Made by a program: the position numbers and the translations under genes. A model generated the notes under the pieces. It was not told the origin of the DNA. It did not search any database and saw only the letters and a list, made by a program, of their open reading frames with translations. From a virus, in IMG/VR virus record IMGVR_UViG_3300034103_001027, positions 1 to 64,000 of that record: 64,000 nucleotides of DNA. One strand, 5' to 3'. Below, piece after piece: positions 1,892 to 56,021 of the stretch; position 1 is the first letter of the stretch; each line of letters begins with the position of its first letter.

Positions 1892-2740
1892 CTACCTCGC
1901 TATAATAGAGTCCACTTCCAAGACGTTACTGGAGTACTTCACCTGTCCAGCGTACTGGCCATCGATAGTCACCTTCACTCCACTATCGATAACCGAGCAT
2001 TCGATTTGATGCCTGCTCATCCACTCGTCGCTAGCATCTGAACCAGGCGCTGCAACCCCAAGCACTAGCTTGACTCCAGAAGCAATAGCCCGCTTAATTA
2101 TCTTCCCAAACACCGCCATATTCGCTTCAGGATTGGGATGCTCTAGCGAGACCGCCTCATGAAGCGCTTCGGCCCACTTGTAGAGATCCTCTTTTGATCC
2201 ATCATTCTCTACAGTGAAGGTCTTTCGATTGAACACGTTCCCAGCGTCCGACACATGGTCGTTCACGGGACCAACTCCTGGGCGCTCTACTAGGGCAAGC
2301 ACCCCGTTGATTGATTCCAATGCATCAACCTCGTTGTCAAATCTGCAATTTGTGATAACGACGTTAGTCCCGTTTCTTATGTGATTCTTGATCGTAGGCA
2401 TTGCAGCGTCCACCCAGACATCATCACCAATGATAGCGCGCATGACATCTGTTCCTAGCCATTGCAGATACTTCCTGACGCTTGGTATCCTCTTAGCTTC
2501 GATCCATCCTCTTTGCCTTACTACAGACCGGAGTCTCCTCGGTATCCATCCGACCCAGACGATTGGATCGATTTCTAGGGCGATGTCGCAAAGCTTGTCA
2601 CTCCAGCCGACCTTCACGTACCCAAATTTCTCGACGAGAATATCAGCGACAGCATCTTTGCCTGCGGTCGCGTACCCAGTAAGCCCAATGACCTTACCTT
2701 TAACCTTGTTCGCTTCAACTTGCATCCGAAACTCTTCCAT
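1892..2740 (-). CDS. deoxynucleoside monophosphate kinase with a C-terminal extension
   Basis: P-loop IGLTGYATAGKD, R.YLQWLGTD..R, VVITNCRFDNE, HVSD. Start placed at the MEEFR ATG, which overlaps the upstream stop. Confidence 0.85.
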   Translation of the reverse strand: MEEFRMQVEANKVKGKVIGLTGYATAGKDAVADILVEKFGYVKVGWSDKLCDIALEIDPIVWVGWIPRRLRSVVRQRGWIEAKRIPSVRKYLQWLGTDVMRAIIGDDVWVDAAMPTIKNHIRNGTNVVITNCRFDNEVDALESINGVLALVERPGVGPVNDHVSDAGNVFNRKTFTVENDGSKEDLYKWAEALHEAVSLEHPNPEANMAVFGKIIKRAIASGVKLVLGVAAPGSDASDEWMSRHQIECSVIDSGVKVTIDGQYAGQVKYSSNVLEVDSIIAR

Positions 2741-2742
2741 GG
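2710..2742. repeat. 33-bp direct repeat, copy 1
   Basis: TCGCTTCAACTTGCATCCGAAACTCTTCCATGG, 31/33 identical to 3236-3268. Confidence 0.9.
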
Positions 2743-3266
2743 ATAGGGGCAGCTCCTTTCTCGATTTCACTTGTCGGCACTCCGATAAACCTATTCCAGC
2801 ATGCAGCCAGTCTCCTGGCTTCCTCTCGACGAAAGATCGTGCCGCTACATTCTTCACGACTATCCGACAGGCATTCGCCATTAAATCCGCAGGCATGTTC
2901 ATGGTCGCGGTGGCATGAAAAAGGAACCAACGCAGTAACATCTCCAGATGCTATTCTTCGATTTGAAATCACCGCATATCGATCACATAAACAAACCCCA
3001 ACCAAATCGACTGACTCTCGAATAACGCAGAACTCAATCCTAGGCTGACCAGCTTTCATTGCGTCATAAACTACACTTGAATCCACTGGCACATCGCCTG
3101 CATGCCATTTGGATCTTTTAATCATCCCAATAGATTGAGCCCCGCGAGTCCAGCGCTTATTAGACTTAACAGTAACCCCAGATACCATGAGTTCTATAAG
3201 CATCTCACAATCGACGATGCGGCTGTTGTTGTTAGTCGCATCAACTTGCATCCGAAGCTCTTCCAT
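2715..3266 (-). CDS. hypothetical protein bounded by direct repeats
   Basis: ORF starting MEELRMQV. It ends HGRVSDAS, nearly the same as the end of the upstream gene (HGRASDAS). Contains an EEARRLAACWN motif. Confidence 0.7.
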   Translation of the reverse strand: MEELRMQVDATNNNSRIVDCEMLIELMVSGVTVKSNKRWTRGAQSIGMIKRSKWHAGDVPVDSSVVYDAMKAGQPRIEFCVIRESVDLVGVCLCDRYAVISNRRIASGDVTALVPFSCHRDHEHACGFNGECLSDSREECSGTIFRREEARRLAACWNRFIGVPTSEIEKGAAPIHGRVSDAS

Positions 3267-3268
3267 GG
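3236..3268. repeat. 33-bp direct repeat, copy 2
   Basis: TCGCATCAACTTGCATCCGAAGCTCTTCCATGG. Confidence 0.9.
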
Positions 3269-4119
3269 CAGTTCTCAACCTCCTCCAGTCTCCTCACCGA
3301 TAGATCAATCTGACTTTCGCGAATATCCACCCCAATCGACTGCCGACCATGATTCTCAGCGACAGCCATTGTCGTTCCACTGCCACAGAAGCAATCTAAG
3401 ACAATGCCTCCAGGCTTGCAGAACGAAAGAATAAATGCCGCAGCTAGAGCCTCGGGAAATGGGGCTTCGTTTTCATGCGAAAGCATGCTGCCCATACGAC
3501 CTCCACCGACCTTGCACTTAATCACATTCCCTGGATTGGCAATTTTAGGTGGGTTATATCCTTGCTGCCGCTTACCATCGGCATCTGCTTTCGTGTGTAA
3601 CTTATGTACTCGACGACCATTAGCCATGCGATGCGAAGGCTCTCCACCAGGAGCCCATTTAGGAGGCTTCCCAGTGGCTGTATTGTCACTCCAAGGCAAC
3701 TTCCCTTTACTGGAGCACACAACAAACTCGTAGTCATTTCGCCACCAATCAGGACCACCACTTCCTGGGATGCCGATACGATTAAATACTGGCGGCTTGC
3801 GAAGTCGGACACCAGCGCGATGCAGATCCGCCATGAGCAGTGCCGGTGTTGCAGACCACCGAAACTTCCTGGTCTGACCCTCAACGACCCACGCGACCAA
3901 GCCCTTGCATATTCTGTCGCACTCCATGTATCTTTCCACAGCCCAATCAACCCAATCCTGCCCGCGCAAGTTAAACCCAACGCCATAGGTTCGCGCTGCC
4001 TCATACGGAGGCGAGCACAAGACTAGGTCCACTGAATTGTCTGGCATGCTACGCATGAAATCCAGGCAATCTGCACGCACAAGCAGTGTCTTAGTTTCAG
4101 ATGCTTCAATAGCCACCAT
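3241..4119 (-). CDS. N4-cytosine/N6-adenine DNA methyltransferase (beta class)
   Basis: Catalytic motif DLVLCSPPY near the N-terminus and SAM-binding motif VLDCFCGSGTT near the C-terminus, with APFP between them. Confidence 0.9.
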   Translation of the reverse strand: MVAIEASETKTLLVRADCLDFMRSMPDNSVDLVLCSPPYEAARTYGVGFNLRGQDWVDWAVERYMECDRICKGLVAWVVEGQTRKFRWSATPALLMADLHRAGVRLRKPPVFNRIGIPGSGGPDWWRNDYEFVVCSSKGKLPWSDNTATGKPPKWAPGGEPSHRMANGRRVHKLHTKADADGKRQQGYNPPKIANPGNVIKCKVGGGRMGSMLSHENEAPFPEALAAAFILSFCKPGGIVLDCFCGSGTTMAVAENHGRQSIGVDIRESQIDLSVRRLEEVENCHGRASDAS

Positions 4120-4125
4120 CGCATC

Positions 4126-5289
4126 TCACTTACTTGGAGTGGGCCTGTAGACGCATCTTGCAATCTCTAAATCCTCTACGTGATACACGATGGCCTGCAT
4201 CCCACGACGCGATAGCCACCCACCATGCGCCGAATAGCTATCCCTGGCAGCAAGAGTCGGATGACACTCAATCGTGGCTGTAGGCGTCTCTATGATGGAT
4301 TGTGTATGCAGGTGCCCCGTATGAATCGAGGTGTGCGTCGTCCCGGCCATGAGGTGCCTGAATTGCCCACACACAAGATCAGCCAGTTCCTTGCCACGCT
4401 TCTTGTGTCCGTGCGTGAATGTCAAAAGATTCTTCCCATGCACGTTCGCATAGTAAGGAAGTGGACTCTGCACCACCTCAGCGCGAGGCTCGTTCTCATA
4501 TAAAACGCCAAAAGCTGATTGCATCCATAGCGCAGAGACCATATCGTGATTACCCTGAGCATTAACTAGGACCACCCTGTCGTGATAACTAAGGAGAGAC
4601 TGCATGGTCCTCCGAATGACCCTAATCGCCGTTCGAATCACTCGGTGCTGTCGACTGTCTTGGTCTAGCACATGATGATTCGTTGGCGTAACGGGCCAGA
4701 TCGAGTCAGAGTGCAGGAGGTCTCCGAGGTTCAGCAAGATCGCAGTACTGGCCTCAGGAGTGTTAGTCACGAGATAATCGAAGGCACTGTCAATCGTCGC
4801 TTCAGCAATCTTCAGGTCCCAATTGTTTCCACCCTCTTCGTGGTGGGCATACATGCCCAGGTGCGCGTCAGTGAGGACATAGAGATTCAATAGATCCTTG
4901 TCGCATCGCACCTGAAGCTCCCTATTAGGCTCCTCTGGTGTCACAAGCTGCGACATCTCCTCGACCATCGCTCTTGCTGCTTCAAGCGTCTGCTGCTGAT
5001 CTTGACGTGTCTTGACCCATCTTGCCTTAACGGCCCCAGCGTCGTCATACAGCGTAGAGACGCCATGCAGCAACTGATTCGGAGCCTGGAGGTCGTGAAG
5101 TCCAGTGTCCGGAGAGTAGCCCCTCGTTGCTGCGTAAGACTTGAGCCGAGACAGTCGCTCATTGAGGTATGATTGACTGATTCCTACAGCCTTAGCTGCC
5201 TTGCGCTGCGATCCCTCCGAGGACATTGCGCGGCACACTTTTTCATCGAGCGCACAAGAAGCGAAAGTACCAAGCTTGTCGTAATCCAT
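4126..5289 (-). CDS. calcineurin-like metallophosphoesterase with an N-terminal HTH
   Basis: Motifs TDAHLG, LGDLLH, GNHD, THGH and TGHLH. N-terminal SQRKAAKAVGISQS resembles an HTH. Confidence 0.85.
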   Translation of the reverse strand: MDYDKLGTFASCALDEKVCRAMSSEGSQRKAAKAVGISQSYLNERLSRLKSYAATRGYSPDTGLHDLQAPNQLLHGVSTLYDDAGAVKARWVKTRQDQQQTLEAARAMVEEMSQLVTPEEPNRELQVRCDKDLLNLYVLTDAHLGMYAHHEEGGNNWDLKIAEATIDSAFDYLVTNTPEASTAILLNLGDLLHSDSIWPVTPTNHHVLDQDSRQHRVIRTAIRVIRRTMQSLLSYHDRVVLVNAQGNHDMVSALWMQSAFGVLYENEPRAEVVQSPLPYYANVHGKNLLTFTHGHKKRGKELADLVCGQFRHLMAGTTHTSIHTGHLHTQSIIETPTATIECHPTLAARDSYSAHGGWLSRRGMQAIVYHVEDLEIARCVYRPTPSK

Positions 5290-5304
5290 GACATGAGGCT
5301 CCTA

Positions 5305-6750
5305 TTAACGTAAACCAACAGACTCCATAAAAGCTTCTATGAACGTCGCGGCAACTTGCGGGACGATAGCATTTCCCAGTCCACGCAACTGAGCCACTCG
5401 TCCGGGTATCCCATGAGCCAACGGGTGAAGTCCGGGTTTAGTTGGCCTACATTTCTCGTCTCGGCAGTAGAGGTACTCGACATCATTCCAGTAGCCATCT
5501 CCGCTGCCTTCGCCAGTGTCGGGTTGCCACCCTGGTAAGTCGTGCTCTGATCTGGCCGTTGTGATTTCGGAGTCGGCCAACCGGCTATCTTTGCAGCATC
5601 CACCAACGTCGTTCCTGCATGGTGCCTGCTCTCTGGATTGGACCGACTTGCTGTTGCGTTGCAAGCGCCTTTCGCATCCCCCACCGTCGCTGTAGGCCAC
5701 CCAGAAAAGCCTTTGACGGATGTGCGGCGAGCCGACGCCCGCAGCGCACAAATCGGCGGCCCCGACTGCATACCCCAATGCTTCCAAGTCAGCACGTACA
5801 GCGGTGAATGATGTTCGGAGGTCAAACGCTCTTTCAATCTGGCCTCCAAAGCCGCTTGCAGAGATGCCGACCGCGAACTTCTCTCCGCACGAATCGCAGC
5901 GGCAATCTCCAATATCTTTGACGGCCCCCAGACGTTCGCCATCACGTTTACGCAATACAGGGTCACTCTGACATTTCCAGAATCGTAACCTTTGCTGTTG
6001 TCGACCCTGTCCAACGAAGGACTGTCCCAAGTCTTGCCACCATCCAGATTGAAAGGGATACCCGTTAGTTCGCAGTGCCCACGGGAGAGCATTAACTGAA
6101 CTTCTTCCACGGAGATGTTCGATGATAAACCTTTCTTCTTCGCTCTGTACTTCGCCACGTTCAGCAAGACTTTCGCCCGCTCTGTTTTGCGGTAGTTCCT
6201 GAACTTCTCCGACTTTACCGCAGCAGGGACAGCATCCTTCCGCTTCTTCTCTTCCAATCGACAGCAGGGCTTGCATTTTGCCCTGTAGCCCTGGCGAGAT
6301 GACTTGGCCTTGTAAAATTCGCTCAATGGTTTGTCGATCCCGCATTCGCTGCACTTGCGCATCACCAGTGAGCCATTTTCTTCCCTCTGCACTGGCGACT
6401 TGCTCGCCAAAGATCGCTGGAGGTCGACACTCGTCAATGAGTCGCAAGAATTCTGGCCACAGGTGCCGTTCGTCTTTAACCCCCTTTCGCTTTCCTGCTG
6501 AGCTAAATGGCTGGCAAGGGCATGACCCTGTCCACACGGGGATATCTTTTGACCATCCGGCCATTTCGAGCGCGAGTGGCCAACCGCCAATTCCAGCGAA
6601 GAAGTGGCATTGGTCGAATCCTTTAATGTCATCGCCTTTAACATCCTTGATAGAGCGAGTGTCAATTGAGTCGAACCGCATCGGAAGGCATCCCAGCCAG
6701 TGCGCCGCCTTCTTGTCGATTTCGTTGGCGTATACCGTGAATTTACTCAT
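5305..6750 (-). CDS. C5 cytosine DNA methyltransferase, alpha polypeptide (motifs I-VIII and X) with a ~188-aa off-frame insertion
   Basis: Motif I FFAGIGG, IV GSCPCQPFS, VI FGEQV, VIII PHIRQRLF, X QLRGLGNAIVPQVA. Motif IX is absent from this frame. Confidence 0.88.
   Translation of the reverse strand: MSKFTVYANEIDKKAAHWLGCLPMRFDSIDTRSIKDVKGDDIKGFDQCHFFAGIGGWPLALEMAGWSKDIPVWTGSCPCQPFSSAGKRKGVKDERHLWPEFLRLIDECRPPAIFGEQVASAEGRKWLTGDAQVQRMRDRQTIERILQGQVISPGLQGKMQALLSIGREEAEGCCPCCGKVGEVQELPQNRAGESLAERGEVQSEEERFIIEHLRGRSSVNALPWALRTNGYPFQSGWWQDLGQSFVGQGRQQQRLRFWKCQSDPVLRKRDGERLGAVKDIGDCRCDSCGEKFAVGISASGFGGQIERAFDLRTSFTAVRADLEALGYAVGAADLCAAGVGSPHIRQRLFWVAYSDGGGCERRLQRNSKSVQSREQAPCRNDVGGCCKDSRLADSEITTARSEHDLPGWQPDTGEGSGDGYWNDVEYLYCRDEKCRPTKPGLHPLAHGIPGRVAQLRGLGNAIVPQVAATFIEAFMESVGLR
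5337..6665 (-). CDS. overlapping-frame methyltransferase beta polypeptide (motif IX) fused to an HNH-type endonuclease
   Basis: A 442-aa ORF nested in another frame of the same strand. It carries CSECG...CKPC, CELTG, SLDRVDNSKGY..GNV.....VN (HNH/EndoVII-like), WPT repeats and LNPDFTRWLMGYP (motif IX). Alternative start at ATG 6362 (MRKCSEC). Confidence 0.8.
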   Translation of the reverse strand: MTLALSRMLKAMTLKDSTNATSSLELAVGHSRSKWPDGQKISPCGQGHALASHLAQQESERGLKTNGTCGQNSCDSLTSVDLQRSLASKSPVQREENGSLVMRKCSECGIDKPLSEFYKAKSSRQGYRAKCKPCCRLEEKKRKDAVPAAVKSEKFRNYRKTERAKVLLNVAKYRAKKKGLSSNISVEEVQLMLSRGHCELTGIPFNLDGGKTWDSPSLDRVDNSKGYDSGNVRVTLYCVNVMANVWGPSKILEIAAAIRAERSSRSASLQAALEARLKERLTSEHHSPLYVLTWKHWGMQSGPPICALRASARRTSVKGFSGWPTATVGDAKGACNATASRSNPESRHHAGTTLVDAAKIAGWPTPKSQRPDQSTTYQGGNPTLAKAAEMATGMMSSTSTAETRNVGQLNPDFTRWLMGYPDEWLSCVDWEMLSSRKLPRRS

Positions 6751-6778
6751 TGCAGAATAAGTGATGGGGTTATCGAAG

Positions 6779-6794
6779 TTGCCATGTATGGCAA
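6779..6794. promoter_or_regulatory. near-palindrome TTGCCATGTATGGCAA between divergent genes
   Basis: Two inverted copies of the TTGCCAT motif in the divergent intergenic region. Confidence 0.55.
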
Positions 6795-6817
6795 GTCGTG
6801 TATCCTGATAATAAGAA

Positions 6818-6837
6818 GTTTGACACTGTCGTCAAAC
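6818..6837. promoter_or_regulatory. palindrome GTTTGAC-N6-GTCAAAC
   Basis: Related to the sites at 7174 and 8097. Confidence 0.45.
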
Positions 6838-6870
6838 GAGAGTGACCACGTTTTTAGCGAAGGATTGAAA

Positions 6871-7128
6871 ATGCCAAACAGCAACCCGAGAAAGGGCAAG
6901 GAGAAGGTCAAGATCACCTCGACCGGCAAGAAAGTCTCTTACGGCGAGAAAGGCGCTGATGTTCGACCAGGAACAGCCAAAGGTGATTCTTACTGCGCCA
7001 GAAGCGCCGGAATCAAGAAAGAGATGCTCGCCAAGGGCGGTAAGTCGGCAGAGAAAGCCAAGGACCCGAACTCGCCAAATAATCTCAGCCGTAAACGCTG
7101 GCGATGCAAAGGAGACAAGAGCGTCTAA
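6871..7128 (+). CDS. basic phage protein (DUF6321-like)
   Basis: GTAKGDSYCARS...DPNSPNNLSRKRWRC, a motif recurrent in aquatic phages. One of the few plus-strand genes. Confidence 0.7.
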   Translation: MPNSNPRKGKEKVKITSTGKKVSYGEKGADVRPGTAKGDSYCARSAGIKKEMLAKGGKSAEKAKDPNSPNNLSRKRWRCKGDKSV

Positions 7129-7173
7129 TTAGACCGCACTGCAAATCTCGTGCCAAGTACGTCTCTGTCAGAA

Positions 7174-7194
7174 ATTTTGACACGATGTCAAAAT
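7174..7194. repeat. palindrome ATTTTGACA-CGA-TGTCAAAAT
   Basis: The 19-bp core is the exact reverse complement of 8097-8115. Confidence 0.85.
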
Positions 7195-7207
7195 GAAGCC
7201 CGAAATG

Positions 7208-7435
7208 CTATTTGGCACGGGAGTTGCTAGAGCCGCCGCAACATCCTGCTCCACCGCTGCAATTGCACCAATCGCAACACTTGGCAAGCTCATTGCAGTT
7301 GCAGTCGGTGCATTGGCAGCTTGGGGAGCAATGGCACTTCTCGTCCCTGGCTGACTGAGTGTTGTACGAGACGACCGCTAGCGTGACTGACAGTGCTAGC
7401 AGGAACAATGTGGTTGTTATCTTCTTCTGGTCCAT
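7208..7435 (-). CDS. secreted or membrane-anchored metallothionein-like Cys-rich peptide
   Basis: Hydrophobic N-terminus (KKITTTLFLLALSVTLAVV), then 12 Cys arranged as CxC and CC pairs. AAGGA RBS upstream. Confidence 0.7.
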   Translation of the reverse strand: MDQKKITTTLFLLALSVTLAVVSYNTQSARDEKCHCSPSCQCTDCNCNELAKCCDWCNCSGGAGCCGGSSNSRAK

Positions 7436-7464
7436 GGCACATCCTTGTGGGTGGTTGTTTTGAG

Positions 7465-8030
7465 AGGGTCCCGCGCTATTGATTCTTACTGTTTCTTTAT
7501 GTTTCTTGTTGATTCTTAGCTAAGTCTGCGCGGACCGGCAGCTTTACATCCCTAAGTGAGATAAGGGTATTCCGATTCTGGGATCGTATTGAATCAGTGA
7601 TCAGCCTTGTGATACTTCTGAGCTGAGAATCAAATCTCACTTGAGGTCGAGGGTCACTGCTAAGTGTTGCCCTCACATTATTGTGCTCTTTAGTATCTTT
7701 GCATCATTGCGCCGGGGACAATGACTCATCCAAGGTTCATGCGCTAGTCTGATTCGATCCAGGAGCTCAACCCCGAAAACCGTAATTCCCAACACGGTAG
7801 GATCATTTGAATCAGGCATGTCACACTAACTGACACTGGCCGGTGCTCCTCATGGGCCGCCAATTTAACGAGCTTGAAACAAGGAGGTTTCCTTGAATCA
7901 CCCTTATTTGTGTCAGAGACTCAACTTTCAACTATTAGTCCAGCTAGACTTCGCTGGTTTCTGGGTGCAACCAGTCCATTAAGAACCAATCACAACACAC
8001 CACGCAACCGCTTATCGGGTTGCCATATAT
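7465..8030 (-). ncRNA. candidate large structured ncRNA (~570 nt)
   Basis: No credible ORF. Many nested helices, G-U pairs that favour the minus strand, and a long-range pairing of 7561-7572 with 7895-7907. Boundaries are approximate. Confidence 0.65.
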
Positions 8031-8034
8031 GGCA
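8020..8034. promoter_or_regulatory. palindrome (T)TGCCATATATGGCA
   Basis: Full palindromic form of the recurrent TATATGGCAAG motif, located at the 5' end of the candidate ncRNA. Confidence 0.55.
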
Positions 8035-8096
8035 TGCATCTCGTCATATAGCACATTCCGAAAGACTCTGCAACTAAAAGTTCCAAAAATCTGAAA

Positions 8097-8115
8097 TTTT
8101 GACATCGTGTCAAAA
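8097..8115. repeat. palindrome TTTTGACA-TCG-TGTCAAAA
   Basis: Exact inverted copy of 7175-7193. Confidence 0.85.
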
Positions 8116-8139
8116 AACCACCTAACCGGAGGGTAGCAT

Positions 8140-11100
8140 TCACTCAGATGGAGTAGATGCGGCAGCCTTAAGGTTCTCTAGTTGCGCTTTCTTTTTATTC
8201 TCTCGAGACTCTTTTTTTATCTCGTTGACCATTTGCTGCAAAAGCTCCATTCTGCGCCTTTCAGCTTCACTCATGCGTTGCTTTTGCCACTCTGGTACGT
8301 AAGTGATACCCATCTCTCGGGCCCCGAGGTCTTTCATTTCCTCGTTGACTCGATTCATGATGATTCGATTCTTGGCTTCTTCGTTGACGGTGTTGACCTT
8401 GAAGCCTGTGGCGAGATTTAGGAGCTTATCCACAGCGGATTTCCGGTCATCGAATGCCTGATTGACCGAGGAGACCAGTCGAGACGTCGGTAGCTTTCCA
8501 GCCAGGACTTCGAGGCTCTGGGACCCCGCAATAGGCTCTGAGAGTCCCTTTCCGGATTGTCCTATCAGGTTATCGCGCAGGCGACCTAACTGCGGGTCCA
8601 TGTCCCTGAAGTCTCGGCCAAAGAAGGCCGAGCGCCCGAAGGCTAGTTCAGCGAATCCTTGGGCTTCTGGTCTGAGTTTCGAGAACAGCGAGGATGCTGT
8701 TCCTTGTACGTCCCCGTGCATGAAGCTCATTAGCTCAATTGGATCCTCCCACGCGAGGCCGAAACCACTGAGATAACGATCTTCACCACCGGGTCCTTGA
8801 GGCAAGGGGATGGCTACGCCTTTTCGGATATGTTCTGGGATGGCGGCTTCTCGGTCCTGGAGTCTATTGGTTCCTCGGATCACCCAAGCCTGCTTCCCGG
8901 CAGGATTTGTGATCAGGTCTCCTAAGGTGAGTTTAAGTGCCTTAGAGGTGAACGTATAGAACGGGATGAGTTGCTTCATATAACGGCGTTCAAAGTCACT
9001 TAAATTCGAGTAGTCAAACTGAATCATATTGACTCTTTTTGCCGCTTCTTCAGGCGTTACGCCTTGCTTGAGGAAGGCGATGTACGGCATGATACGGTTG
9101 GCGTTTTCGACGAACAGGCTCATCTCTTCACCGATCCGGCCAGCGACGAACGTGGTATCCTCTGTTCTTTGTAGGCCCAACTTGCGACGGCCTTCGCCAG
9201 GGGCCTTTTGGAACGAAGGGGTCAATGAGCCTTGTATACCAATGGGGTTTGCTTTGCCCTTAGCTGAGGTTGTCTTGTCGAATATGGCGGGTTTTAGGCC
9301 GTACCAGTTTTCTGCGTTACGTTTGATTGCTCCAGGGTTCTGGCTGACTAGGCTCGAGACGGTGTCGCCGATTTTCTCAGCGGCCTGCCCTTGCTTGTCG
9401 CCGGTTAGGCCAAACCGGAAGACTCCCTGTCGAACCCAGTCAGTGACCAGTTCATCCCCCTCCGGGGTGCCAATCATTTCGTCTGGAATGTTTAGGTCGT
9501 CATCCCATAGGAATCTAGGAATCTCCTTTGAAATCCCCTTAGCGACATTTCCATTGCTGATGGAGACGGCCTGCCTTAATGGCTTGATATGACCCAATAC
9601 GGGACTGTAGATCCCTCCGATTGTTGCTGTTGGGTCATAAGCGCCGTAGAACACGTTCTGCATCATGCCAGAGATGAAGTTCCTACTATGGAAGGATGGG
9701 AATGGCAGCGTAACTAAGGATTTGAATGTGTTCAGTGCAGCGCCAGAGATCTGTACTAAGGTGCTGATCTGAGGTGGCGTGGTCCATGTTCTCAGGAAGT
9801 GCGTAGCTGACTCGTGGATTTCCTTGGGAACGGAGAGCTTGATCTTGTCAGCGTAAATTTTGGATAGGTGCTTAGCTTCGATGAATTCGTCGAGAGTCTT
9901 AAAGTCCTGTGGCTTCTTCGTGTGTTTGTAAGTGTAGCCAGTGATTTTTCCGTTTGCGTCTCGGTTGACTGACAGCTTTTTGTCTTTGATTAGCTTCTTG
10001 ATCTTTTCATCGACGAACTGCTTGTATCCAGGGAAGTTATCTGTGCCGCGCAGGACGTTTAGGTAGGCGTTGTGGTTGTCTAGGGCTGTCGCCTGGAATA
10101 GGCTTGAGACTAGGTATTTTTGTTCGCCCTTGTATGTAGCTGAGCGAGTGACTAGGTCTTGGACCGTAAGTCCGACGGCATTCTTTGTGTGGTGAGATTC
10201 AGCGTAGGCCGCGAAGTCTCGCAAGAAGTTGTGACCAAACATCGGGACGCCCTCGGTGATATGGTCCTCGGGGAGCTTGGCTATCGATGTTATGAGGCGA
10301 TTGACCTTGGCTTTGCCTTTTTTAGTTAGCTTCCCGTCTTTGTAGAATCCGTGAATAGGGTCTGAAGACAGGATGTTGTGTAGTCCGTATTTTGCGATGG
10401 CGTGCTTGCGGGCTGCAGTGAGGGTTTCTTTGCTCAGTTTGTTCTTGAGAATTTCCTCCTTGTGCGCGATGCCGCTCAGCTTTGGATCCAATGACATCTC
10501 GTTAATCAGCGCGCGCCCTCCTGGTATATGCCGGTACGCCTCGTCTCGCTGCCTTTGAGAGTCCATCTTGGTGCTCATTAGAGCCTCACCATCAGTTCTA
10601 GACCTAAGATGCTTTCCAGGTTCTGTGTAGTTTCTGGGGTAGTATGGCACTTCAGTATCGAATAGTGCGGATCCGCTTAAGCCGTTCTTGCGCTGTTCAT
10701 CCAGCATTCTCGGAAAGGCGTCTTTGAGGCTTTGCAGCATTGTCTCTAGTTTATCTAGATCAATATCTGTGTCTTTGAATACCTCTGGCGATAGGTGATA
10801 TAGCTTCTCTGGTTTTGCTTCAAAGAATCTAATGATCTCGTTGTTCCGCGCGTTGATGATTGCCTTAGCTTTAGTGAGTGCTTCCTCGCGCGGGAGCTTG
10901 GCGTTGTCAATCAGGTTCGTAGCGATGGCCTTCAGGTCGAACAGTTGAGTCTCCCCGATGTACCGGCTGATTGGGTACAGCATTGCGCGAAACTCATAAA
11001 TGGATTGCTCGAATGCTTGGAATCGCAGTCTAGCTAGTTCCTGCGTGTCGTGATCGTAAGCGCCCATGACTGAGCGGTCGAATAACTGCAGGAACATCTT

Positions 11101-14100
11101 TGCTCCAGGTGTGGCGTAGAATAGATTCTCACCTGCGTCGAGAGCCTGCAGGACAGTCGTGATGATGCTGTCACCCTTAACGTGCTCGTAGATTTCATTC
11201 CAAATGGGTCGCGCCAGCTTGTGTGATATTTTGGCGGCTTGAGTTTCAGCAGCGGATCGAGTCTGATTGACAATGAACATCTTTCCGTTAGCGCCGAGAG
11301 TAGCTCTTTCGATGAGTTTATTCCATATCGCATTAAACTGCTCGAGGCCGATTCTGTTTTTATCGAAGAGTTTGGAGGCAAGATGTGCCGACGCGAGTGC
11401 CATTTCATAATCTTGGCTGTTGCTTCTGTTTAGAAGGGCACTGTTTGGGTCGTCGAGCATCTTCTTATTAAGAAGTGTATCCAGGACCAATTTCTCGTTG
11501 GTGGATAATGATCCTTGGAATTCATCGCCCAGCATGTATTCAGCTAGATTGCGTGCGCTGATTGAGTGCTCAAGTGTCTCATCTACTGCGCTCACAGATA
11601 TCATGTCAACGCCTGGGGTCTCTATTCCCTTGGCAAAATCCTTACGCGCTGCGTCTCGGATTGTTTGCATGATGGTCTCTATATGGCGGTTGCCTTTATC
11701 TGTGGCAAATTTATTTACCGTGTAGTCTGGATCTTTCTCAATCTTGTTCAGCAATTCTTGATACTCATCCCTGTCGGCTTGTTCGCTGAGGTATTTGAGG
11801 TTGTCTGGTGTATGCGATATCTTGACATTGACCATCGGCCCTTTATTGTTTTTTAAGAATCGATTCTTGATTAGCGTGTGGCCGATGTCGCGAAACTGCC
11901 CGTTCTTGTCGATGAACTCGTGGTTCTCGATCATTTTAATAACTTCAGGTTGGTCAATAAAATCACTTGCGCGACTAGCGTCATTGAATGCTGCGGATGT
12001 GGCAGCTTTTCTGACAGAGATCTGCATTCTTTTAAGTATCTCGTTCCTTGCTTGCTGGGCGAGCGACTCTAGGCTGTCCTTTGTGGCTTGGTCTATATTT
12101 TCTTCGGCAATAACCTGCCGGAACTTATTCATGCTAAGGAACAGTTCCTCTAAGGTTTTCTTATTGTCTTTTTGAGGTTCTGGGCCTATGGCTTTTTTGA
12201 TCAGCTTGTTGTATTCGTTTAAGCCATTGCTCCTGGAGTCCAGCTCTTCCTTTTGTGCGGAAGTTGGGTTCTTTCCAGTCTTCTTTTTTCTCAGTGAGAT
12301 CTTTCTTTGCAAGCTAGACAATTCTGATTCTGCTTGCGACTTTTGACTAATAAGATCTTGGGCTTGCGTGATCCTTTCGTTTAGCTCTGCGATCTCTCGC
12401 GTGTTGTCTTCTGCAGCATCACCCTTAAGCGACTTGCCTTTATCGCGCAATTGCTGCACTTGCTGCTTAAGCGCCTCAAGTCCGCGTTGCTCAGGAGTGG
12501 CATCTAGAGCCTCAAGGACCGCCTTGGCGTCTTGCAGCGACATGTCTCTGACGGCCTGTCCACCTTGATATTTGACTTCTTTTGCGGCTTCTTTTACTGT
12601 CTCTACAGGCGCTGCGGCTTTTGATATTTTAGCCTTGGCTTTTTTGCTTGTTTCTGTAGGTGACTTTAGATATCGTTTGATGATGTCGATATCAGTGTCG
12701 GTGATTGAGGCGTCTGCTTTTTTGAGTGCATCAATCGCTTCGTCGCTAAGCTCCGTCACGTCCTCAAGTTTTTGTGCTCCACGGATCGTGTCTAGGTTAT
12801 TCAGGATGATGCTGGACACCTTGTCTGCAGCGTGTTTCTTTGCCAACTTGTCAGGTCGCTTGGTTTTCATTGTTACCTGAAGCGCTTCATTGACTGCGCC
12901 AGCCAGTGACCCTAAGAAGTCCTTGTCACCTGTGATGCCAAGCTTGTTGCTTAATGTTTCAGTGATTCCGTGTACTTTGATGTACTTGTTGATGAATTGC
13001 TGGTCGAGATCCTGCAGTAGCTTGATAGCTTCTGGAATGTCTGCATCTGGAATGGATTCATTGATATTCTTGACTAAGTTAGTCATGAATTCTTGGTATT
13101 GTTCCGGAGTGCTTACGTTTGCCAGGTCAAAGCGCACCTGCTCCATATTGTCTCTTAGGTATGGCAGCTGATCTGCTTCGAATATCTCGATGCCTTCAGC
13201 TTCATCTGGGTCAAGAATCTGCTTGAGTCTCTTGGTTCTCTTGGCTGGATCTGCTGCTTGCTCTGCGACTTGTTCTGCAGTAGCCTTCTCTGCGGCAGTT
13301 TTCCTTTTGCGAAGTTCCACTGGACCGACTGGCATTTGCTTGGGGATGGCGGTAGTCGGTTCTTGGGTCTTCTTGGGTTTTCTGGTGTCTACGGATTTTG
13401 TGCCAGGTGTCTCTGTGATAACTCGCTTGCTGCTTTGGCTCCTTTGGGCCATACGGGACAGAATATTGTCTGCTGGCCTGTCGTCTATTGGATTTAGCGG
13501 CAGTTCCAACTGTCCTGGACTAGGCTTCAGCGCGGGAGGTTCTACGGGAGCGGCTGCTTCTTCGAGTGCATTGCGAGGCTTATTGCTTGTCGCGTAATCT
13601 TCGCCATCGAACAGTCCAAGCTGCCCTCTTCTCGGGGTGCCTTGAGCTGTATCTAGCAGTGTGTTTTTGTTTTGCGATAGCGGCTTTTTATTCTTGCCGA
13701 GCATCTCGTCGAATACCTGCTTCAGATCGTCATTGATCTTGGCATTTATCTCTGGGCTGACTTTAAGTGTCTTGTATACAGACCGCATCATTCTCTTGAT
13801 GACGGCAAAGACTTCCTTCAGTGCAGTTGTTGGCGCTGTGCCGTCTAGCATGTACTTTTCGAATAGCCGAGCCCACACTTCCTCAGCTTCGCGAGTCCAA
13901 TTGCCGTTTGCGTCTTTCAGTTCAGCAGACGCAATGCCACCGAGTATGTTCCTTAGTGTGTCAGCGTCTTTAAGCTGATGCCCAATGGCCTTGTCGGCCT
14001 TGGACATAAGGTCTTCGCTTAGATTCCTGCGGAATACGTGCGACAGTTCGTGAATAACAGTTGATGCATCACCTTCTCCGGTTAGTATCTTGATTGCTGC

Positions 14101-17100
14101 TTCGCCTGTTTCCTTGAATGAAACAACGCCCTTGCCCTTCTGCTCAAGTCGATCCAGTATCTTGATGTCTTTGTCGTCGAACACAACAAAGTTATAGTAG
14201 CCCTGCTTATTGCCTCCTCTTAGGAAGTTTTCTGGAACGGCATTGCCTTTGATGCCGACGCTATGGAGGTCCTTTGATGCTGCCTTCTTGGCTTGGAAGT
14301 CAGTTAGCTCGAATCCACGTGAGATAGACTCTACTATGCTTTTCGCCTTGTCTATTGGTACCCCGTGATCATTAAGGAGGAATGCTGCCGCATATGGATT
14401 CCCGTCATTAATGGCATGCTCGACGGAGTCAATGACTTCTTGCTTGGTTCTTAGCTTCAGATCGCCGCTGGCAAGATCATCTACGATTTGCTCCAAAATC
14501 TCTTCGTGTGTTTTCCCATAGTAGTATGCAGCACTTTTTTGCCCTTGCTCGCTGATGAAGTATCCCAACTTTACATTGTATTCCCCAGCCACTTTCTCTG
14601 AAGCCATCTCTTTGATATCATCCAAGCTTGGCGCTGAGTCGTATACCTTTAGGAGTGGCCCAGCTTGATCTTCGACAGCTTTCTTAACGGAGAAGTTCGA
14701 GGACTTCGAGGCGTGTTCTTGCCTCGCCTTCTGCATCAACTGCTCATAGATTTCCTGGCCTTTAAGGCCTTTGTATGGGTAGTCCTCATCTAGGATCTTT
14801 TTAGCTTCATCCAGCGAGTTTGCGTACGAGACAGGGGTGTTTTCATGCGGAATGTGGGCGTACCACTTATCTTTGACAATGCTTTCGATCCACTCTGTCG
14901 CTTCTTCTTTTGTTTGAAAATACTCATCAAAGTCGTCATCGAAGATGTTGAATATTTCTGCGTGAAATTTATCGCCACGCTTTGTTATAACTCCAGAAAG
15001 AGGATCTTCGCCAGTCCCGAACCACCACTCGTTAGGCTGTGTGCCATTAAGGTTTTCTAGTTGCTTTATTAGGTCATCTTCGCTGGAGGCTGCGTCTACG
15101 ATGACCTCTCCTTGCCTGCCTCCATTCATGACAACAGCGTACCACCCCGAGCCGTCCTTTCTGACTTCTAAGTCGCCATTTTCGATTGCCTCTCTAGATA
15201 TATATTTATCCAGCGAGTCGTCGCGCCACTCTTGATTGATCTTCCTGACGTAATGCCCATCAAATCTTTCTAGCCGCAGCTCTCTTGAGTTGTAGTGATT
15301 GTGCGGAGTTTCTTCCCACTGTGTCTCTGCTGAGATCCCTAGCTTCTTAAGCCCCTCTTGCACCTTAGGTGGCTGCTCGCTGAATGGCTTATCCCAGAAC
15401 ATAAGATCATCGTTGTCTGGTACTTCCAGCTTGTAGAGAGCGCCTTGTGTTCCTATTTGAATGTCACCATCTTTTAGGCTGTCAAGCGTCCTTAATGCTT
15501 CTCCGTAGTTGTGTTGAAATTTTGCTTCGGCGAGATCTCTTCCATACTTTTCGATTCTTCCTAAGAGTTCCCTCGCGGCCACATGTTGCTGGAGTGCCCA
15601 TAGATCCTCCGGGGTGATCATCTTTCTTCTGTCTATGGTCCTTGTTAGGTACTTGCGCTTTTTGATTTCTATCTCAATTGACTCATTGGTGAATACATTG
15701 GATAGTTTTTTTATCGCGTCCTCTACAGAAACAGCTCCTTCTCTCCAGTCGCTCTGGTTTTTAGGTACTTCGACTATTGGTTTTATTTCATCAAACACAA
15801 TGTCCATGAGTTTCACTGCATCATTCGGAATAGCCGCTATCCCTGGTGGGTGTCTTCTAGCTATCTTCTCGATGAGTTCAACTGCCTCTTTATTGTTGAC
15901 CCCCACCAATTTAAGATACTCTTTAGCGTCTACTTCGAACGCAGAGATAATTGGCTTGAGATCTAATAATGCCCTTATCTCTATAGCATCTACGCTACTT
16001 CGCTTCCTCGATAGGATATTTTCTTTGATTCGGTCGACGATTTCCGCTAGGCCGCTTTGGGATTTCTGTTTGCGAATGTCTTCTGCAACAGCCCTGATGA
16101 TATAGTGAGCTTGCGATATAGGTTTTCCTTTGTATGTATCCGGAGCACCATTACCAGCCAGAGCTTCCTTGTATCTCCTGCCCAGTCCCTCTCGCTGGGC
16201 TGAATAACCACCAAATCCATGCGCTTGACCTGCACCTTCAACACCTCTTCCTTCACCTGTGCTAACACGGCTCAAGTCAAATCGACCGAGCGGGAAGTTT
16301 TGGAGTGTCTCAGCACCTTCTGGAATAGCCTCTCCTGCTTCGAGATACCTCTCAGATCCATCTGGCATTCGAACAAGCATTTCTGGTGCGAATACGTGCG
16401 GAGTTCCGTGGTATGCTATTTGCAGTAATTCATTCACTGCACCATTTGCATCTCCAGCGATTCTAGAGGCAAAGCCAGCGGCTTCTTCCGGTGACATTGA
16501 CTCGATGGTAGTGAGTAATACTCTTTCATTGCCGCCAGCCTTAACGAATTCTCTGATCAATGGAACCATAGCATCAGCCGCATCTTTATTGACTGTCCTT
16601 TCGATGCTTTGATGCAATCGGTTCAGTTCGGTGTTATGCTTCGCGTTGTCGCTGAACTTCTTGGGTGGGTCGTTTTTTCTGGCTGTATCTAGCAGTAGAT
16701 TGCCAGTTGTTGCTTCTGGCTTCTTAGTGAACATGCCATCGAACAGGTTTTGCTTCTCATCGCTCCAATCGCGACTCAGTGGCGAGTTTTTGATTCTTTT
16801 GTATATGCCACTTATCCACTGCTTCATCTTGGCGAATATCGCCGTAAGGTCGCTTGTTGGAGCCTTGCCTGTTGCGAGGTACTTCTCGAAGTCTCGAGCA
16901 AAAGCCTCTTCTTGTTCTCTAGTCCACTTGCCGTCTTTGACTTTGTATATCTTCTCAGCTAAGTCTTGTAGGTCCTTGCGGAGTCGTCTGCGCGCAATGT
17001 GTCCTAGTTCGTGGGCAACTGTAGAGATGTTCGCGTTTTCGAATAGAAATACTTTCGCGAATGCATCAGGTTCGTTGAATCGAACTGCGCCACGGACTAG

Positions 17101-20100
17101 TTCCTTGCCTTTCGTTCCTGTTCGCTGATAGAGTTCTTGGCTTAGCTCTGGGTGTGCTATTTCCCACCCAGTAACAAACGGCGTGTCGTTATTTTTAATT
17201 AAAGTTAGTAGAGCCTTCCTTTGACTGATCGGAGTTCCTTTTATCTCTCGGTTTATCAGTCTCATTATTTTTTTATCGTCAAAGCTGCTCCATTCCTGTA
17301 TTTGAGACATTGGCCATTCTGATTTTAGCCACGCCTTGTGCGATTCGCTTCCGAAGAATATTTCTGCAGCGTCCCTAGATGATTGGCTTGCTGAGTTTGG
17401 AAGTTGCTTTTCTATGGTTCCTATCGCTTCTATGAATTCGTCTTCTTGCTTGAACCCAGCAGCAAAGTCCATTAATTCGGAAACGATTTTCATTGATCTA
17501 GGAGATCTGTCGTATCCGACTACTTTCGCTATGATATCGGAGATTCCTTCCCACATTCTTGCGATTAGATCTGCGATTCCTTGGTTTTGGAATGACGTTT
17601 TGTGGATCAGGTTGTCGGCGAATAATTGCGCAAACATTTCATCTACGCTGCTGGAGTAGTAGTCTGCGGCTGATGTTCCGTCTGGACGCTTCAGTCTTTC
17701 GTAGATATCTTTGAAGTATTTCTTTCCTTCTCCTGTCTGTGCAAATTGGGATATGATACTCCTGGATAGGTGTCTCATTTTTGAGTCCATGGAGTAATAT
17801 GCGATGTGCCCTAGTTCGTGCATTAATACAATTGCCCTTCTCTTGGACCGTGGGTTTAATTGTATCTTTTGCCCTCCGAGCATAGGTCGACCGTACTTAT
17901 CCAGTTCCATTATCGGGTACGCACTTGCCCAGCCAGCCATTTCCATGGAACTGTTTAGTTCGACTGCGGCGTTTGCGTGGAAGTGCTTGGCATCTTTGAA
18001 TGCTATTTCTAGGAAGTTTATTTCATCGCTGCTTAGGTAACCTTGTTTCTTGAGGTAGTCCAAGTGGTATCCGAACTTATCTCGGAATGCTGTTATCTGT
18101 TGTGGCGAGGCTTCTGCTTCAGATTGAAACAGGATATTCGGATTCGTGGCGTCGAACGTGCCTTTGTTTGCTGTGGCTGATTTGATTTGGGATGGCTCGA
18201 AGGCAACGATTTCGCTTTCGGCAAGTCGCTTGTTTTCTTTGCCAGCACTAGCAGCAACGCTCCTGTCGTATATCTCTCCGTCATATCCGGCATCCTCTAG
18301 TGCTCTTCGTCTTGCTACTGCGAAGTTGCGAGCGTACTCATCCACGTCTGCCTTGGCTGCCCTAGTTATCCTGTTTAATCTCTCTAGTTCTTCTAGCCCC
18401 TTACTAATAATGGATGGGTCGTTTGTTATTCCGTGTATAAATGGCTTCTTCAGGTTCAGGTAGACTGGAATAACTCCTCTCTTGTCGCCTACGCTAAACA
18501 TGGCATACTCTGAGGCTAGGTCCGAGCTTTTGGTGAAATAAGATCCAGCAGCAATGTAACCTTCGTCGTTAGCGCCAAAGGCTGCTGTATTGAATGCAGG
18601 TGTTTCACTTAGAGGCATTAAGTAGCCTCTGTATGTAGGCTGTGGCGGTATCGATGCAATCTCCTCATCTATCGCAAGCTTTAGTCTTTTAATGTCCTGG
18701 TGCTGGTCAAATAGTCGGATGTAAGCATCATGGCTTATCGCGTCACGAGAAGTCCCAGGGAAGTTCTGCCAGAACCTCATTGCTTCTTGCTTGTTATCTG
18801 CGACGTGTATTGCTCCGGCTATTCTGTCGGCAATGTATTTATTTTCGACCAACTCAGATACTTTAGCGAGGATATCTTGCTCGGCAGCTTCATCCGCTTT
18901 GTTTCTGTCTAATCGAAGTTGTTCTTTCCTCTTTTGATATGTGCTGTTCCACGCCTGATCGTCGGCTTTATATTGTTCAAGCTTACGGTTATGCGCGGCG
19001 GCCTCCTGCGTGCCTAGGTCAGAGAACCCTGTTCCATGATAAACAGCCAGTGGCTCTCCAGTATTGGGGTCCACGACCTTACTGGCATTAACTGGGTCAT
19101 TCTCCCAGTCTCCAAACCACTTTTTGAATGCTGGCGTCCTAACTTCAACCCACTGTCGGTAATTCAGGTTGGTCTTTCCGGCTGCTTTCGCTGCATTGTA
19201 GGCAGTCCTCCCGCCAATGCGTGATTCTGTGGCTGTAAACTCTGCGCTAGTAATCTCATCCTGATGTAAGATTCCTTGTAGTAAGTCGCCTTCCTCTTGG
19301 GTTTTCAGAAAATCTTCGTAGCTTGTGCTGGAGAACTCTGCACGCAGGTAGTCGTCTGGTTTTTGGTCTGCGGCATCCGCAAGAGCCCTTACGATTGCTT
19401 CGTAGTTGTCGGCTATTTCGTCTACATTTGCTTCGTTGCTGTATCGCTCCTTGATGGCCTTTCGTAGCGACTGCAGTGGTGTTTGCGTTTCAGTTGCTGC
19501 GTCCGCTGCTTTGGTGGTGTTTTTTAGCTTGGCTGATGCGATGTAATTTTGCGGGCTCTTCATCGCCTCTGCAAAACTTATATCCAGAGCCTTGCCTGTG
19601 GCTCTGCTGGAGAATGTTATATTCTCTTTGCCCAATAGGGAGCCTAGCGCCCCTAGTGCTGATTGGTTGGTGAAGTGACCAGAAATGGAGGTTGGGTTGT
19701 ATTGTGAGGACTTTTCGATGATTTCATTGAGCAGTGCCTTTCCAGATCCTTTCGGTGCATTGTCGTTTTTGCCGAATGCGTCGACGTAGATCGAGGATTC
19801 GTCTCCGGAGAACCTGAGCGTAGCTTCTGCGGATCCGGTTTCTTGTTGGACCTTTAGTCCGTATGAATCGTCGCCGTAATTGACCCACTCTCCTGCTGGC
19901 TGTGGTGTATCTTGCTTCTGTGGAATGTCCGGATTTGTCCGGATCGTGTCCGGATTAGTTGATACCGGATCTGGTATATTTTCAGACCTTGGCTTTCTGT
20001 ATTTCTCGGCGGACTTCTGGTACTCACGTTTCCAGTTATTCATCTTTGAAGGATTGCCCGCTCCACCAGTTGCCTCATCTGCGGCAGCCTTCTGCGGTTT

Positions 20101-54507: not shown

Positions 54508-54694
54508 AAGCCCATGCACTGGAAATTGTATCTTATGTGATACAATATGCATTGGCTGTGGCAGGACTCTCGATGAGATATTTCGATGGCGCGCTATGCG
54601 CGACTGCGAGAAGCTCGAGGTTTTGAGGCGGACGGGAGCACTGGACTGTGAGTCCACTTCCAGCGATGAATCAGCCGAAGGTGATCCGCGCTAA
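54500..54694 (+). CDS. DUF1289 family Cys-rich protein
   Basis: SPCTGNC.....CIGCGRTLDEI..W..M. Confidence 0.8.
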   Translation: MVRSPCTGNCILCDTICIGCGRTLDEIFRWRAMRDCEKLEVLRRTGALDCESTSSDESAEGDPR

Positions 54695-56021
54695 ATGGCT
54701 TCTTGAGGCTGAGTCTTGCCTTGTGTTTGCACTTGCCCCACAAGCTGCTGCCAATCATCTCGTGCATGATGTCTATCTGTCTCAGCCTGCGCTGCACATA
54801 GGATCGCTTGAGCATTGTCAGATTGGCCTTGACGCCTAGTTCCCTGGCCTTGATGGCTATGATCATGTCCTCGATTTGAGTGGTAGACAATCCGAGTTCG
54901 TACTTCATGACCCATATCTGACCGGCTTGAAGCAGTTGCTTCTTATCGACAGCCAGTCTCTTTTGGTGTTCGCTAATCTGTTCTATTTTGAATCCAGCGC
55001 GAGGGAGTCCATTTGGCCTTCCGTTTGCTTGGCACCATGCAGCAGTTTCCTTGTTTCGATTAGACTTCATCTGGCTTTCTAATTGTGCAATTGAAGCCAT
55101 CAGCGATATCCATTCCTTACCCTGCCCTGTGTCTGTCCTGATTCGCTCGCAGACGAAGTGAACGTAAGCGCCTTTTCGCTGTATCTCGGCTATTGTCTTC
55201 ATGGCGTCCAGGGTATTTCGCCACCCTCGATCCATTCGGTAGATAACGACGTCATCCCCTGGCTGCAGGTCGTTCATAAGCCGCTTACCGGCCTCTCGCT
55301 CCATAAATGGCACTGAGAAGGCGCTAATGGCAGGATCGGAGTAAACTGGCCCTACAGGGCACTGTAGCTTCTCTGCGAGGTCCTCTGCGTATTTGGCATT
55401 GGCAGTGCCTTGCCACTTCAGGCCGAGCCCTGAGACGTACTGTGGCTCTGTGGATACACGTTCGTACATGCGGATCGTGCCTGTTGGTCGCTCCGTTTTG
55501 ATCTTTTGAGGCAGGACGAATTCGCTATTCATCCATTTGACTTTTGGCTTCGTGTTTGACGATTGCGAGTTTTGAAGCCTCTTGATTAGTAGTGCTTCTC
55601 TAATTCGCTCGCTTGTCACATCAGAAGCGTATTGAGCCATAGCGGCTAGGATATTCGCCTGTAGCTTCCCGGAGGCTGTGGTCGTGTTGATCTGGTTGTT
55701 GATGAAATGCACGAAGATACCCTTCTCCTCGAAGAAGTGCATCAAGTTGCAGAAGTCTCTCAGGTTTCTGCATAGTCGGTCGATCTGCAAGCATATAACG
55801 TGGTCGCCCGGCTTTACCTGCTCGATGATGCGACCACCACCTGGGCGGCCCGCAAAGGATTTGCTCCATGCGCTGACGCCAGCATCAGTAACCACAACTT
55901 GCTCAGCCTCTGGTATAACCGAAGTGGCATAATTGGTTGTCCTGACCATTTGGTCTGGTATACTGATGTCAGAGGCTTTGGAGTCCTTATGGCTAACGCG
56001 ATTGTAAAGGAATGCTTTCAT
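54594..56021 (-). CDS. serine recombinase with two tandem resolvase catalytic domains
   Basis: Domain 1: YNRVS...D.GVSA...RP...PGD....IDRLCRN...SERI. Domain 2: YERVS...D.AISA...R.....PGD....MDRGWRN...SNR.K. Confidence 0.9.
   Translation of the reverse strand: MKAFLYNRVSHKDSKASDISIPDQMVRTTNYATSVIPEAEQVVVTDAGVSAWSKSFAGRPGGGRIIEQVKPGDHVICLQIDRLCRNLRDFCNLMHFFEEKGIFVHFINNQINTTTASGKLQANILAAMAQYASDVTSERIREALLIKRLQNSQSSNTKPKVKWMNSEFVLPQKIKTERPTGTIRMYERVSTEPQYVSGLGLKWQGTANAKYAEDLAEKLQCPVGPVYSDPAISAFSVPFMEREAGKRLMNDLQPGDDVVIYRMDRGWRNTLDAMKTIAEIQRKGAYVHFVCERIRTDTGQGKEWISLMASIAQLESQMKSNRNKETAAWCQANGRPNGLPRAGFKIEQISEHQKRLAVDKKQLLQAGQIWVMKYELGLSTTQIEDMIIAIKARELGVKANLTMLKRSYVQRRLRQIDIMHEMIGSSLWGKCKHKARLSLKKPFSADHLRLIHRWKWTHSPVLPSASKPRASRSRA

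Follow-up and report, generated by a model that had tools for sequence, protein, structure and literature searches.

A non-coding gap behind the giant virion gene of a phage, possibly the structured leader of a lineage-specific, moron-like cassette

The question raised by this locus is what 704 ORF-poor nucleotides (7436-8139) do in a freshwater phage genome between the stop codon of a giant virion gene (8140) and the start codon of a 75-aa ORF (7435), and whether they act as RNA, as DNA or not at all. The window analysed covers the first 64 kb of an IMG/VR virus record of 106,833 bp, whose estimated completeness is 77%. The minus strand carries nearly all genes of the 106.8-kb record, Shine-Dalgarno (SD) motifs lie upstream of about half of them, and the 4724-aa polyvalent giant (virion) protein is encoded at 8140-22314. 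The record also encodes a large terminase, a helicase, a resolvase-domain recombinase, a sigma-70 family protein and two DNA methyltransferases, one of which is of the N6/N4 type. The initial annotation had proposed that most of the gap is a highly structured minus-strand non-coding RNA with a long-range pseudoknot, belonging to a class of large phage RNAs such as ROOL and GOLLD or to a new one. The reading favoured here, held tentatively and with less than even confidence, is a lineage-specific cassette of moron-like type in which the gap would serve as a structured leader or as the segment between cistrons (Table 1).

By every test run, the gap is non-coding. Each of the six frames holds 11-17 stops of all three kinds, so the reassignment of a stop codon would open no frame, and the small minus-strand ORFs that tile the gap have codon scores no higher than the 8th percentile of genuine coding windows under a model trained on this phage's own genome. 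Two of these ORFs (7497-7676 and 7673-7819) have borderline codon scores and overlap by 4 nt. The small ORFs had no match in Pfam or PHROG even at E = 1, and six-frame tblastn of the gap returned no match in ~450 kb of related loci or in the remaining genome. A hidden protein gene or an alternative genetic code is thus ruled out by the stops, the codon scores and the empty searches, and the non-coding status that had been claimed for this stretch is upheld.

The claim that this is the only long gap holds within the 64-kb window and fails genome-wide, where another ORF-free gap of 742 nt occurs at 92376-93117. This second gap, located near a switch between minus- and plus-strand genes, lies in the part of the genome where GC-corrected folding is strongest, has no Rfam or tRNA match and is a candidate control or origin region. 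Between small minus-strand genes at 89310-93268 of the genome, the hairpin CCGTCTC-N5/6-GAGACGG recurs in ~10 copies, several of which abut an SD motif or start codon, and these hairpins look like phage-specific regulatory, terminator or processing elements of an early-looking region. A replication origin or attP at 7436-8139 itself is unlikely by position, given the better candidate for a control region at 92-93.7 kb and the absence of a long inverted repeat near the recombinase gene.

Table 1. Features of the gap and of the putative cassette around it (window positions)
Feature	Position	Strand	Remarks
Left palindrome, TTTTGACA-CGA-TGTCAAAAT	7175-7194		14 nt past the 75-aa ORF stop; local hairpin -6.8 kcal/mol
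75-aa orphan ORF	7208-7435	-	AAGGA SD 6 nt before the ATG; signal-peptide-like N-terminus; 17 Cys
Non-coding spacer, candidate structured RNA (leader/intercistronic)	7436-8095	-	Closed frames; folding z; pairs kept in L022
GC-rich 9-bp helix with 51-nt A-rich loop	7467-7536	-	Read from the sequence; duplex -14.9 kcal/mol
Hairpin GAGGG-CAA-CACU-UAGC-AGUG-A-CCCUC	7649-7674	-	In L022, 7656 A>G with 7665 T>C, compensatory (A-U to G-C)
Small hairpin with strand-specific compatible change	7818-7836	-	7819 T>C in L022
ECF-sigma-like GGAACTT-N16-TCGGA, candidate cassette promoter	8057-8084	-	12 nt inside the right palindrome, pointing into the spacer; post hoc lead only
Right palindrome, ATTTTGACA-TCG-TGTCAAAA	8096-8115		25 nt after the giant-gene stop; local hairpin -7.5 kcal/mol

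The gap does not belong to a known RNA family. Rfam covariance models at gathering scores had no match in the whole window or in the rest of the genome, and a search of 7000-8300 at E values up to 10 returned three noise matches, all in flanking coding sequence outside the gap. ROOL, GOLLD, OLE, raiA, HEARO and the other Rfam RNAs are rejected by this search, including the kinship with ROOL or GOLLD that had been considered for the gap. ROOL and GOLLD often adjoin tRNA genes or tRNA islands in phages and prophages, an arrangement that is common and not obligatory (Kretsch et al., doi 10.1101/2024.12.08.627333), and this neighbourhood is also absent here, as ARAGORN returned neither a tRNA nor a tmRNA gene across the 106.8-kb record.

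Nor is membership of a widespread class supported. Searches by blastn against 50,697 phage records and with an exact 20-mer of the gap against IMG/VR found no homologue, and none was reached by IMG/VR searches with the giant-protein C-terminus, P0002 and P0003; the latter two belong to a set of closer giant-protein relatives (P0002-P0006), encoded on contigs of 110-112 kb and with C-termini 43-70% identical to that of the giant protein. Alignment against the GTDB genomes returned only a distant contig from a Flavobacteriaceae MAG, in which the gap is absent, and the neighbouring 142-aa gene as a query led to 3 short contigs with a different context. The one homologue came from a single metagenome scan, which returned the contig L022, 99.3% identical over positions 2302-13577 of the window. 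In all 14 distant relatives of the giant gene whose downstream sequence extends for 1 kb or more, the next ORF begins within ~260 nt of the giant-gene stop and there is no gap at the junction, so the cassette is a lineage-specific insertion.

All ten helices on the initial list are complementary at their coordinates and in that sense exist, but the impression of a region filled with helices does not exceed chance, as the stem counts match those of dinucleotide shuffles. The gap contains 8 perfect stems of at least 7 bp (7.4 in shuffles), 4 of at least 8 bp (1.7 in shuffles, with 10% of shuffles reaching 4) and 1 of at least 9 bp (0.47 in shuffles). The two arms from which the long-range pseudoknot had been proposed, 7561-7572 and 7895-7907, are one of these chance-level 8-mers and form an ordinary nested helix in the minimum free energy (MFE) fold, where they close the central domain; no L022 variation falls inside them, and the pseudoknot is not retained. 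Globally, the minus strand alone folds better than expected by chance, and to a modest degree, with an MFE of -176.9 and z-scores of -2.52 and -2.84, compared to an MFE of -158.3 and z-scores of -0.94 and -1.03 on the plus strand. The ensemble diversity follows the same direction, at 69 on the minus strand (137 +/- 42 in shuffles, 7% of which are as low) and 164 on the plus strand (147 +/- 32 in shuffles). The strand preference that had been suggested from G-U pairs is therefore real. The description as highly structured is not supported: eleven sliding 120-nt windows have z-scores of +0.7 to -2.1, three further sub-windows have -0.3 to -1.6, and 11 of 187 other 566-nt windows of the genome (~6%) fold better on the minus strand after GC correction.

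Within the gap, TGATTC/GAATCA occurs 7 times in ~420 nt, in agreement with the about seven copies of the initial annotation, compared to 0.89 per kb window-wide; this is the densest such cluster in the window, and several of the longest stems consist of these words. Two short palindromes are also present, CUUAGCUAAG of 10 nt at 7516-7525 and GCCAUAUAUGGC of 12 nt at 8021-8032. The A-rich loop of the GC-rich helix contains four 10-nt units (nnAAGAAnCA) at 7480-7519, with two copies of UAAGAAUCAA; helix and loop are located 30-100 nt upstream of the start of the 75-aa ORF, the A-rich part is unpaired in the consensus fold, and the sub-window alone has a z-score of -0.3. An exact 12-nt repeat, TGATTCTTACTG, occurs both in this loop (7480-7491) and inside the convergent 142-aa gene (6984-6995), and an additional TGATTC/GAATCA word is present at 7010.

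Stem counts equal to those of shuffles, weak local z-scores and the ~6% of genome windows that fold as well are what would be expected if the gap were non-functional spacer, either the remnant of decayed genes or filler brought in with the small ORF, with folding and a compensatory pair that arose by chance. The borderline, overlapping pair of small ORFs would suit a decayed gene, and the lack of homologues elsewhere agrees with this reading. Conversely, 700 nt of filler is rarely retained in phage genomes, no frame shows a trace of protein homology, and the folding signal is specific to one strand.

Six substitutions separate L022 from the window within the gap, and none breaks a predicted minus-strand pair. 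Two of the six form the compensatory change in the hairpin at 7649-7674. A third, at 7819, converts a U-A pair on the minus strand to U-G, a change that on the plus strand would give a C.A mismatch, and the remaining three (7826, 7689 and 7580) are unpaired, the first of them within the loop of the hairpin at 7818-7836. The natural L022 variant has an MFE of -200.3, compared to -196.7 for the window sequence, and among random mutants with six substitutions of the same types only 5% are as stable as L022 on the minus strand, compared to 44% on the plus strand. In the adjacent ORF region, by contrast, 2 of 4 substitutions disrupt predicted pairing, at a cost of 6.5 kcal/mol in MFE, so the constraint is specific to the spacer. 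The divergence of the gap (0.85%) falls between the dN (0.28%) and dS (2.2%) of the surrounding genes, a comparison weakened by strong regional heterogeneity, with several neighbouring genes that have zero differences.

Collectively, these observations are suggestive of selection that maintains at least some of the minus-strand pairings, on the strength of one compensatory event in one near-identical homologue. The covariation check that had been recommended yielded this one compensatory pair, from the single homologue found. For the non-functional reading, a sample of six substitutions offers very little power, while the compatibility of all six with the structure, compensatory pair included, has a joint chance of roughly 1e-3 by a rough estimate, and the substitution rate of the gap lies below dS. 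A spacer without function is judged rather less likely than the preferred reading, and is the most probable of its rivals.

Two further differences between the strains occur outside the gap. The giant gene of L022 encodes 4024 aa instead of 4724 aa, with the middle modules replaced or deleted and near-identical flanks (window 13600-19900 compared to L022:6056-10305), which indicates probable modular turnover inside a polyvalent protein. The exonuclease-like gene at 4126-5289 has 25 synonymous and 0 non-synonymous differences next to neighbours with none and, judged by this pattern, is a sharply bounded, putative recombination patch.

The spacer and the 75-aa ORF lie between twin palindromes. 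The left palindrome repeats the right one in inverted orientation over 20 nt without a mismatch, and no perfect inverted repeat of the genome is longer, with ~0.005 expected by chance. The shared motif TTGACA-N3-TGTCAA has 2 sites in 106.8 kb, each located just after a minus-strand stop, and the same pattern in IMG/VR returned 5 unrelated sites, a chance-level result. On the minus strand, each palindrome is followed by AAAUUUC(A/U)GA, and the tails read UUUCAGAUUUUU at the right copy and UUUCUGACAG at the left. The two loops (CGA/TCG) match exactly as reverse complements, and the 7-nt flank is in direct orientation. As RNA, the two palindromes could form a duplex of -28.9 kcal/mol, and the whole 951-nt cassette has a z-score of -4.4 with its termini paired, most of which comes from the 20-nt terminal repeat alone. 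A terminator scan did not call either palindrome (the stems are AU-rich, with 2 G-C pairs each), and on the minus strand the same scan found nothing resembling a terminator hairpin where the gap gives way to the 75-aa ORF. Transcription of the spacer on this strand would therefore run on into the ORF. A leader or intercistronic reading is for this reason more natural than a stand-alone gene, and the independence as an RNA gene implied by the initial annotation is not sustained.

Signals for transcription initiation are less distinct. A scan for sigma-70-like promoters in the gap found none. The motif GGAAC-N16/17-TTCGGA has three exact copies in the genome (1103-1129, plus strand; 8057-8084, minus strand; and 58405-58431, plus strand), with no one-mismatch copy and no copy in the reversed genome, and may be an ECF-type promoter motif, though it was picked after the sequence had been seen. 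The genome encodes a divergent Sigma70_r2 protein (56020-56709, plus strand), which adjoins the gene for the 475-aa resolvase-domain protein (54594-56021); in the latter, two stretches match the Resolvase N-terminal domain, and a Pfam search at E <= 0.001 found no further family. A reading of the right palindrome as a Bacteroidetes-type promoter was dropped, as about half of the genes use an SD motif.

The status of the 75-aa Cys-rich ORF matters for the leader reading. Two protein searches, one of which covered 1.84 billion representatives, found no homologue, and no gene caller recorded the ORF. Compared to L022, it has 3 non-synonymous and 0 synonymous substitutions, with residue changes limited to S38N and D54N and no Cys affected, and the 3:0 pattern fits neutrality. 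An antisense hydrophobic ORF of 53 aa (7193-7354, plus strand) is open as well and has a better codon score than the 75-aa ORF. The 75-aa ORF is unconfirmed as a gene, and if it is not one, the term leader loses its meaning.

In the preferred interpretation, a cassette of ~900 nt (~7175-8115) would have been inserted between the end of the giant virion gene and the convergent gene. Its minus-strand transcription would depend on read-through from the late operon or on a promoter that lies immediately inside the right palindrome. The transcript would continue, without a terminator, into the 75-aa Cys-rich ORF, and the spacer would be a long 5' leader or intercistronic RNA. Selection would keep at least the hairpin at 7649-7674, and probably the central domain, and the selected hairpins could act on the downstream ORF by tuning its stability, its processing or its translation. 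A plausible binding site for the ribosome or for an S1/Hfq-type protein would be the single-stranded A-rich repeat that shortly precedes the SD motif. The unit would be delimited by the twin palindromes, which could act as weak hairpins or pair with each other into a 20-bp stem, a possible site for RNase III. The weak local z-scores, the genome windows that fold as well and the single covariation event all count against this interpretation, as do the negative scan for a sigma-70-like promoter and the unconfirmed status of the downstream ORF, and 650 nt is unusually long for the leader of a phage moron.

Much of the same evidence would serve a stand-alone RNA of ~600-900 nt that founds a new orphan class and acts in trans, for example by binding or sequestering a host factor, or by self-assembly via GAAUCA/UGAUUC words and palindromic loops. 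The minus-strand z-scores, the ensemble, the pairs kept in L022 and the mutant test do not distinguish such an RNA from a leader. In one version the whole cassette would perhaps be excised at the 20-bp stem of the twin palindromes, for which the paired termini and the inter-palindrome duplex can be cited; the strong enrichment of GAATCA/TGATTC, the two palindromes within the spacer and the orphan status of the neighbouring ORF, with no gene caller's record, are also in its favour. On the other side are the absence of an Rfam match and of a tRNA neighbourhood, and a homologue in one strain only, whereas ornate RNAs are widespread. Further, no terminator-like hairpin precedes the ORF, the local structure is weak, the stem counts are at chance and the z-score of -4.4 is mostly an effect of the terminal repeat. 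The ORF, for its part, has an SD motif, a predicted signal peptide and a conserved Cys scaffold. A stand-alone RNA is accordingly quite improbable, and its more specific form, a lineage-restricted phage RNA of ~650-900 nt that would be freed from the late transcript at the palindrome stem, pair through GAAUCA/UGAUUC alternatively or between molecules, and found a new class, is less probable again.

The least probable of the readings places the function in the DNA. The 20-bp inverted repeats would bracket an invertible or mobile cassette (inverton or pdif-like), or the phased 10-bp repeats and the GANTC cluster would constitute a protein-binding or methylation-controlled region, and RNA folding would be incidental. 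An inverted repeat of this length is hardly expected by chance, and reverse-complementary loops next to a flank in direct orientation suggest recombination or spacer inversion more than a pair of independent terminators. A serine recombinase of the resolvase/invertase type and the N6/N4 methyltransferase are encoded by the phage, GANTC reaches its top density in the window here, with 11 sites in 704 nt, and the four 10-bp units of the A-rich loop are in phase. However, the recombinase gene is 46 kb distant and is not flanked by comparable repeats, and the cassette has the same orientation in both available sequences, the window and L022. The TGATTC words are not arranged in close dyads, the region lies away from replication genes, and the region at 92-93.7 kb is the better candidate for control. 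The compensatory change, the wobble that is possible on the minus strand only and the strand-asymmetric folding point to RNA instead.

Taken together, the evidence extends to mild selection on a small number of hairpins, in a sequence seen in a single phage lineage so far, and constitutes a lead, not the discovery of a ROOL- or GOLLD-like RNA. The spacer resembles those RNAs in being phage-encoded and non-coding, in its size of 500-800 nt and in palindromic loops that could in principle support self-association. It differs in having no covariance-model match, no tRNA in the genome and no homologue family, and in its weak thermodynamic and covariation signals; the ornate classes typically feature many divergent homologues with helices and pseudoknots supported by covariation, a pattern that the spacer does not appear to share.

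Invertible segments of the Hin/Gin type provide a second comparison. As in an inverton, a long perfect inverted repeat brackets ~900 bp, the sites have two-fold symmetry and the phage encodes a recombinase of the resolvase family. Serine recombinases use a 2-bp crossover, whereas the centre of these sites is 3 nt; moreover, the recombinase is encoded at a distance, one orientation has been seen, and the cassette shows no evident gene fusion or promoter switch.

The two closest comparisons are with long bacterial leaders and with morons. The rpoS leader, a long structured bacterial 5' leader of ~570 nt, contains A-rich Hfq sites. The spacer has a similar length, directly precedes an SD motif and ATG without an intervening terminator, and allows alternative pairings among repeated complementary words; close to the ribosome-binding site it has an A-rich (ARN-like) tract that is single-stranded. 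It has no sequence or family relationship to that leader and no known partner sRNA or ligand. Phage morons are independent promoter-gene-terminator units between conserved genes, as in lambda and HK97. Unlike a typical moron, the cassette is non-coding over ~660 of 900 nt, its brackets are perfect inverted copies of each other, and the hairpins at its ends, which are rich in A-U pairs, are not called by a standard terminator scan, with no clear promoter found. Like a moron, it is a lineage-specific insertion at the end of a virion-gene block, absent at the same junction of the 14 distant relatives, bracketed by hairpin-forming sites, with a small exported-looking accessory ORF and a GC content of 0.483 compared to 0.501. 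Should the spacer prove to function as RNA, it would add a rare example of a structured leader of great length, or of a processed RNA, to what is found in phage accessory cassettes, here beside an exported-looking Cys-rich orphan peptide, and could show how accessory genes are controlled at the end of the virion operon in temperate or large freshwater phages.
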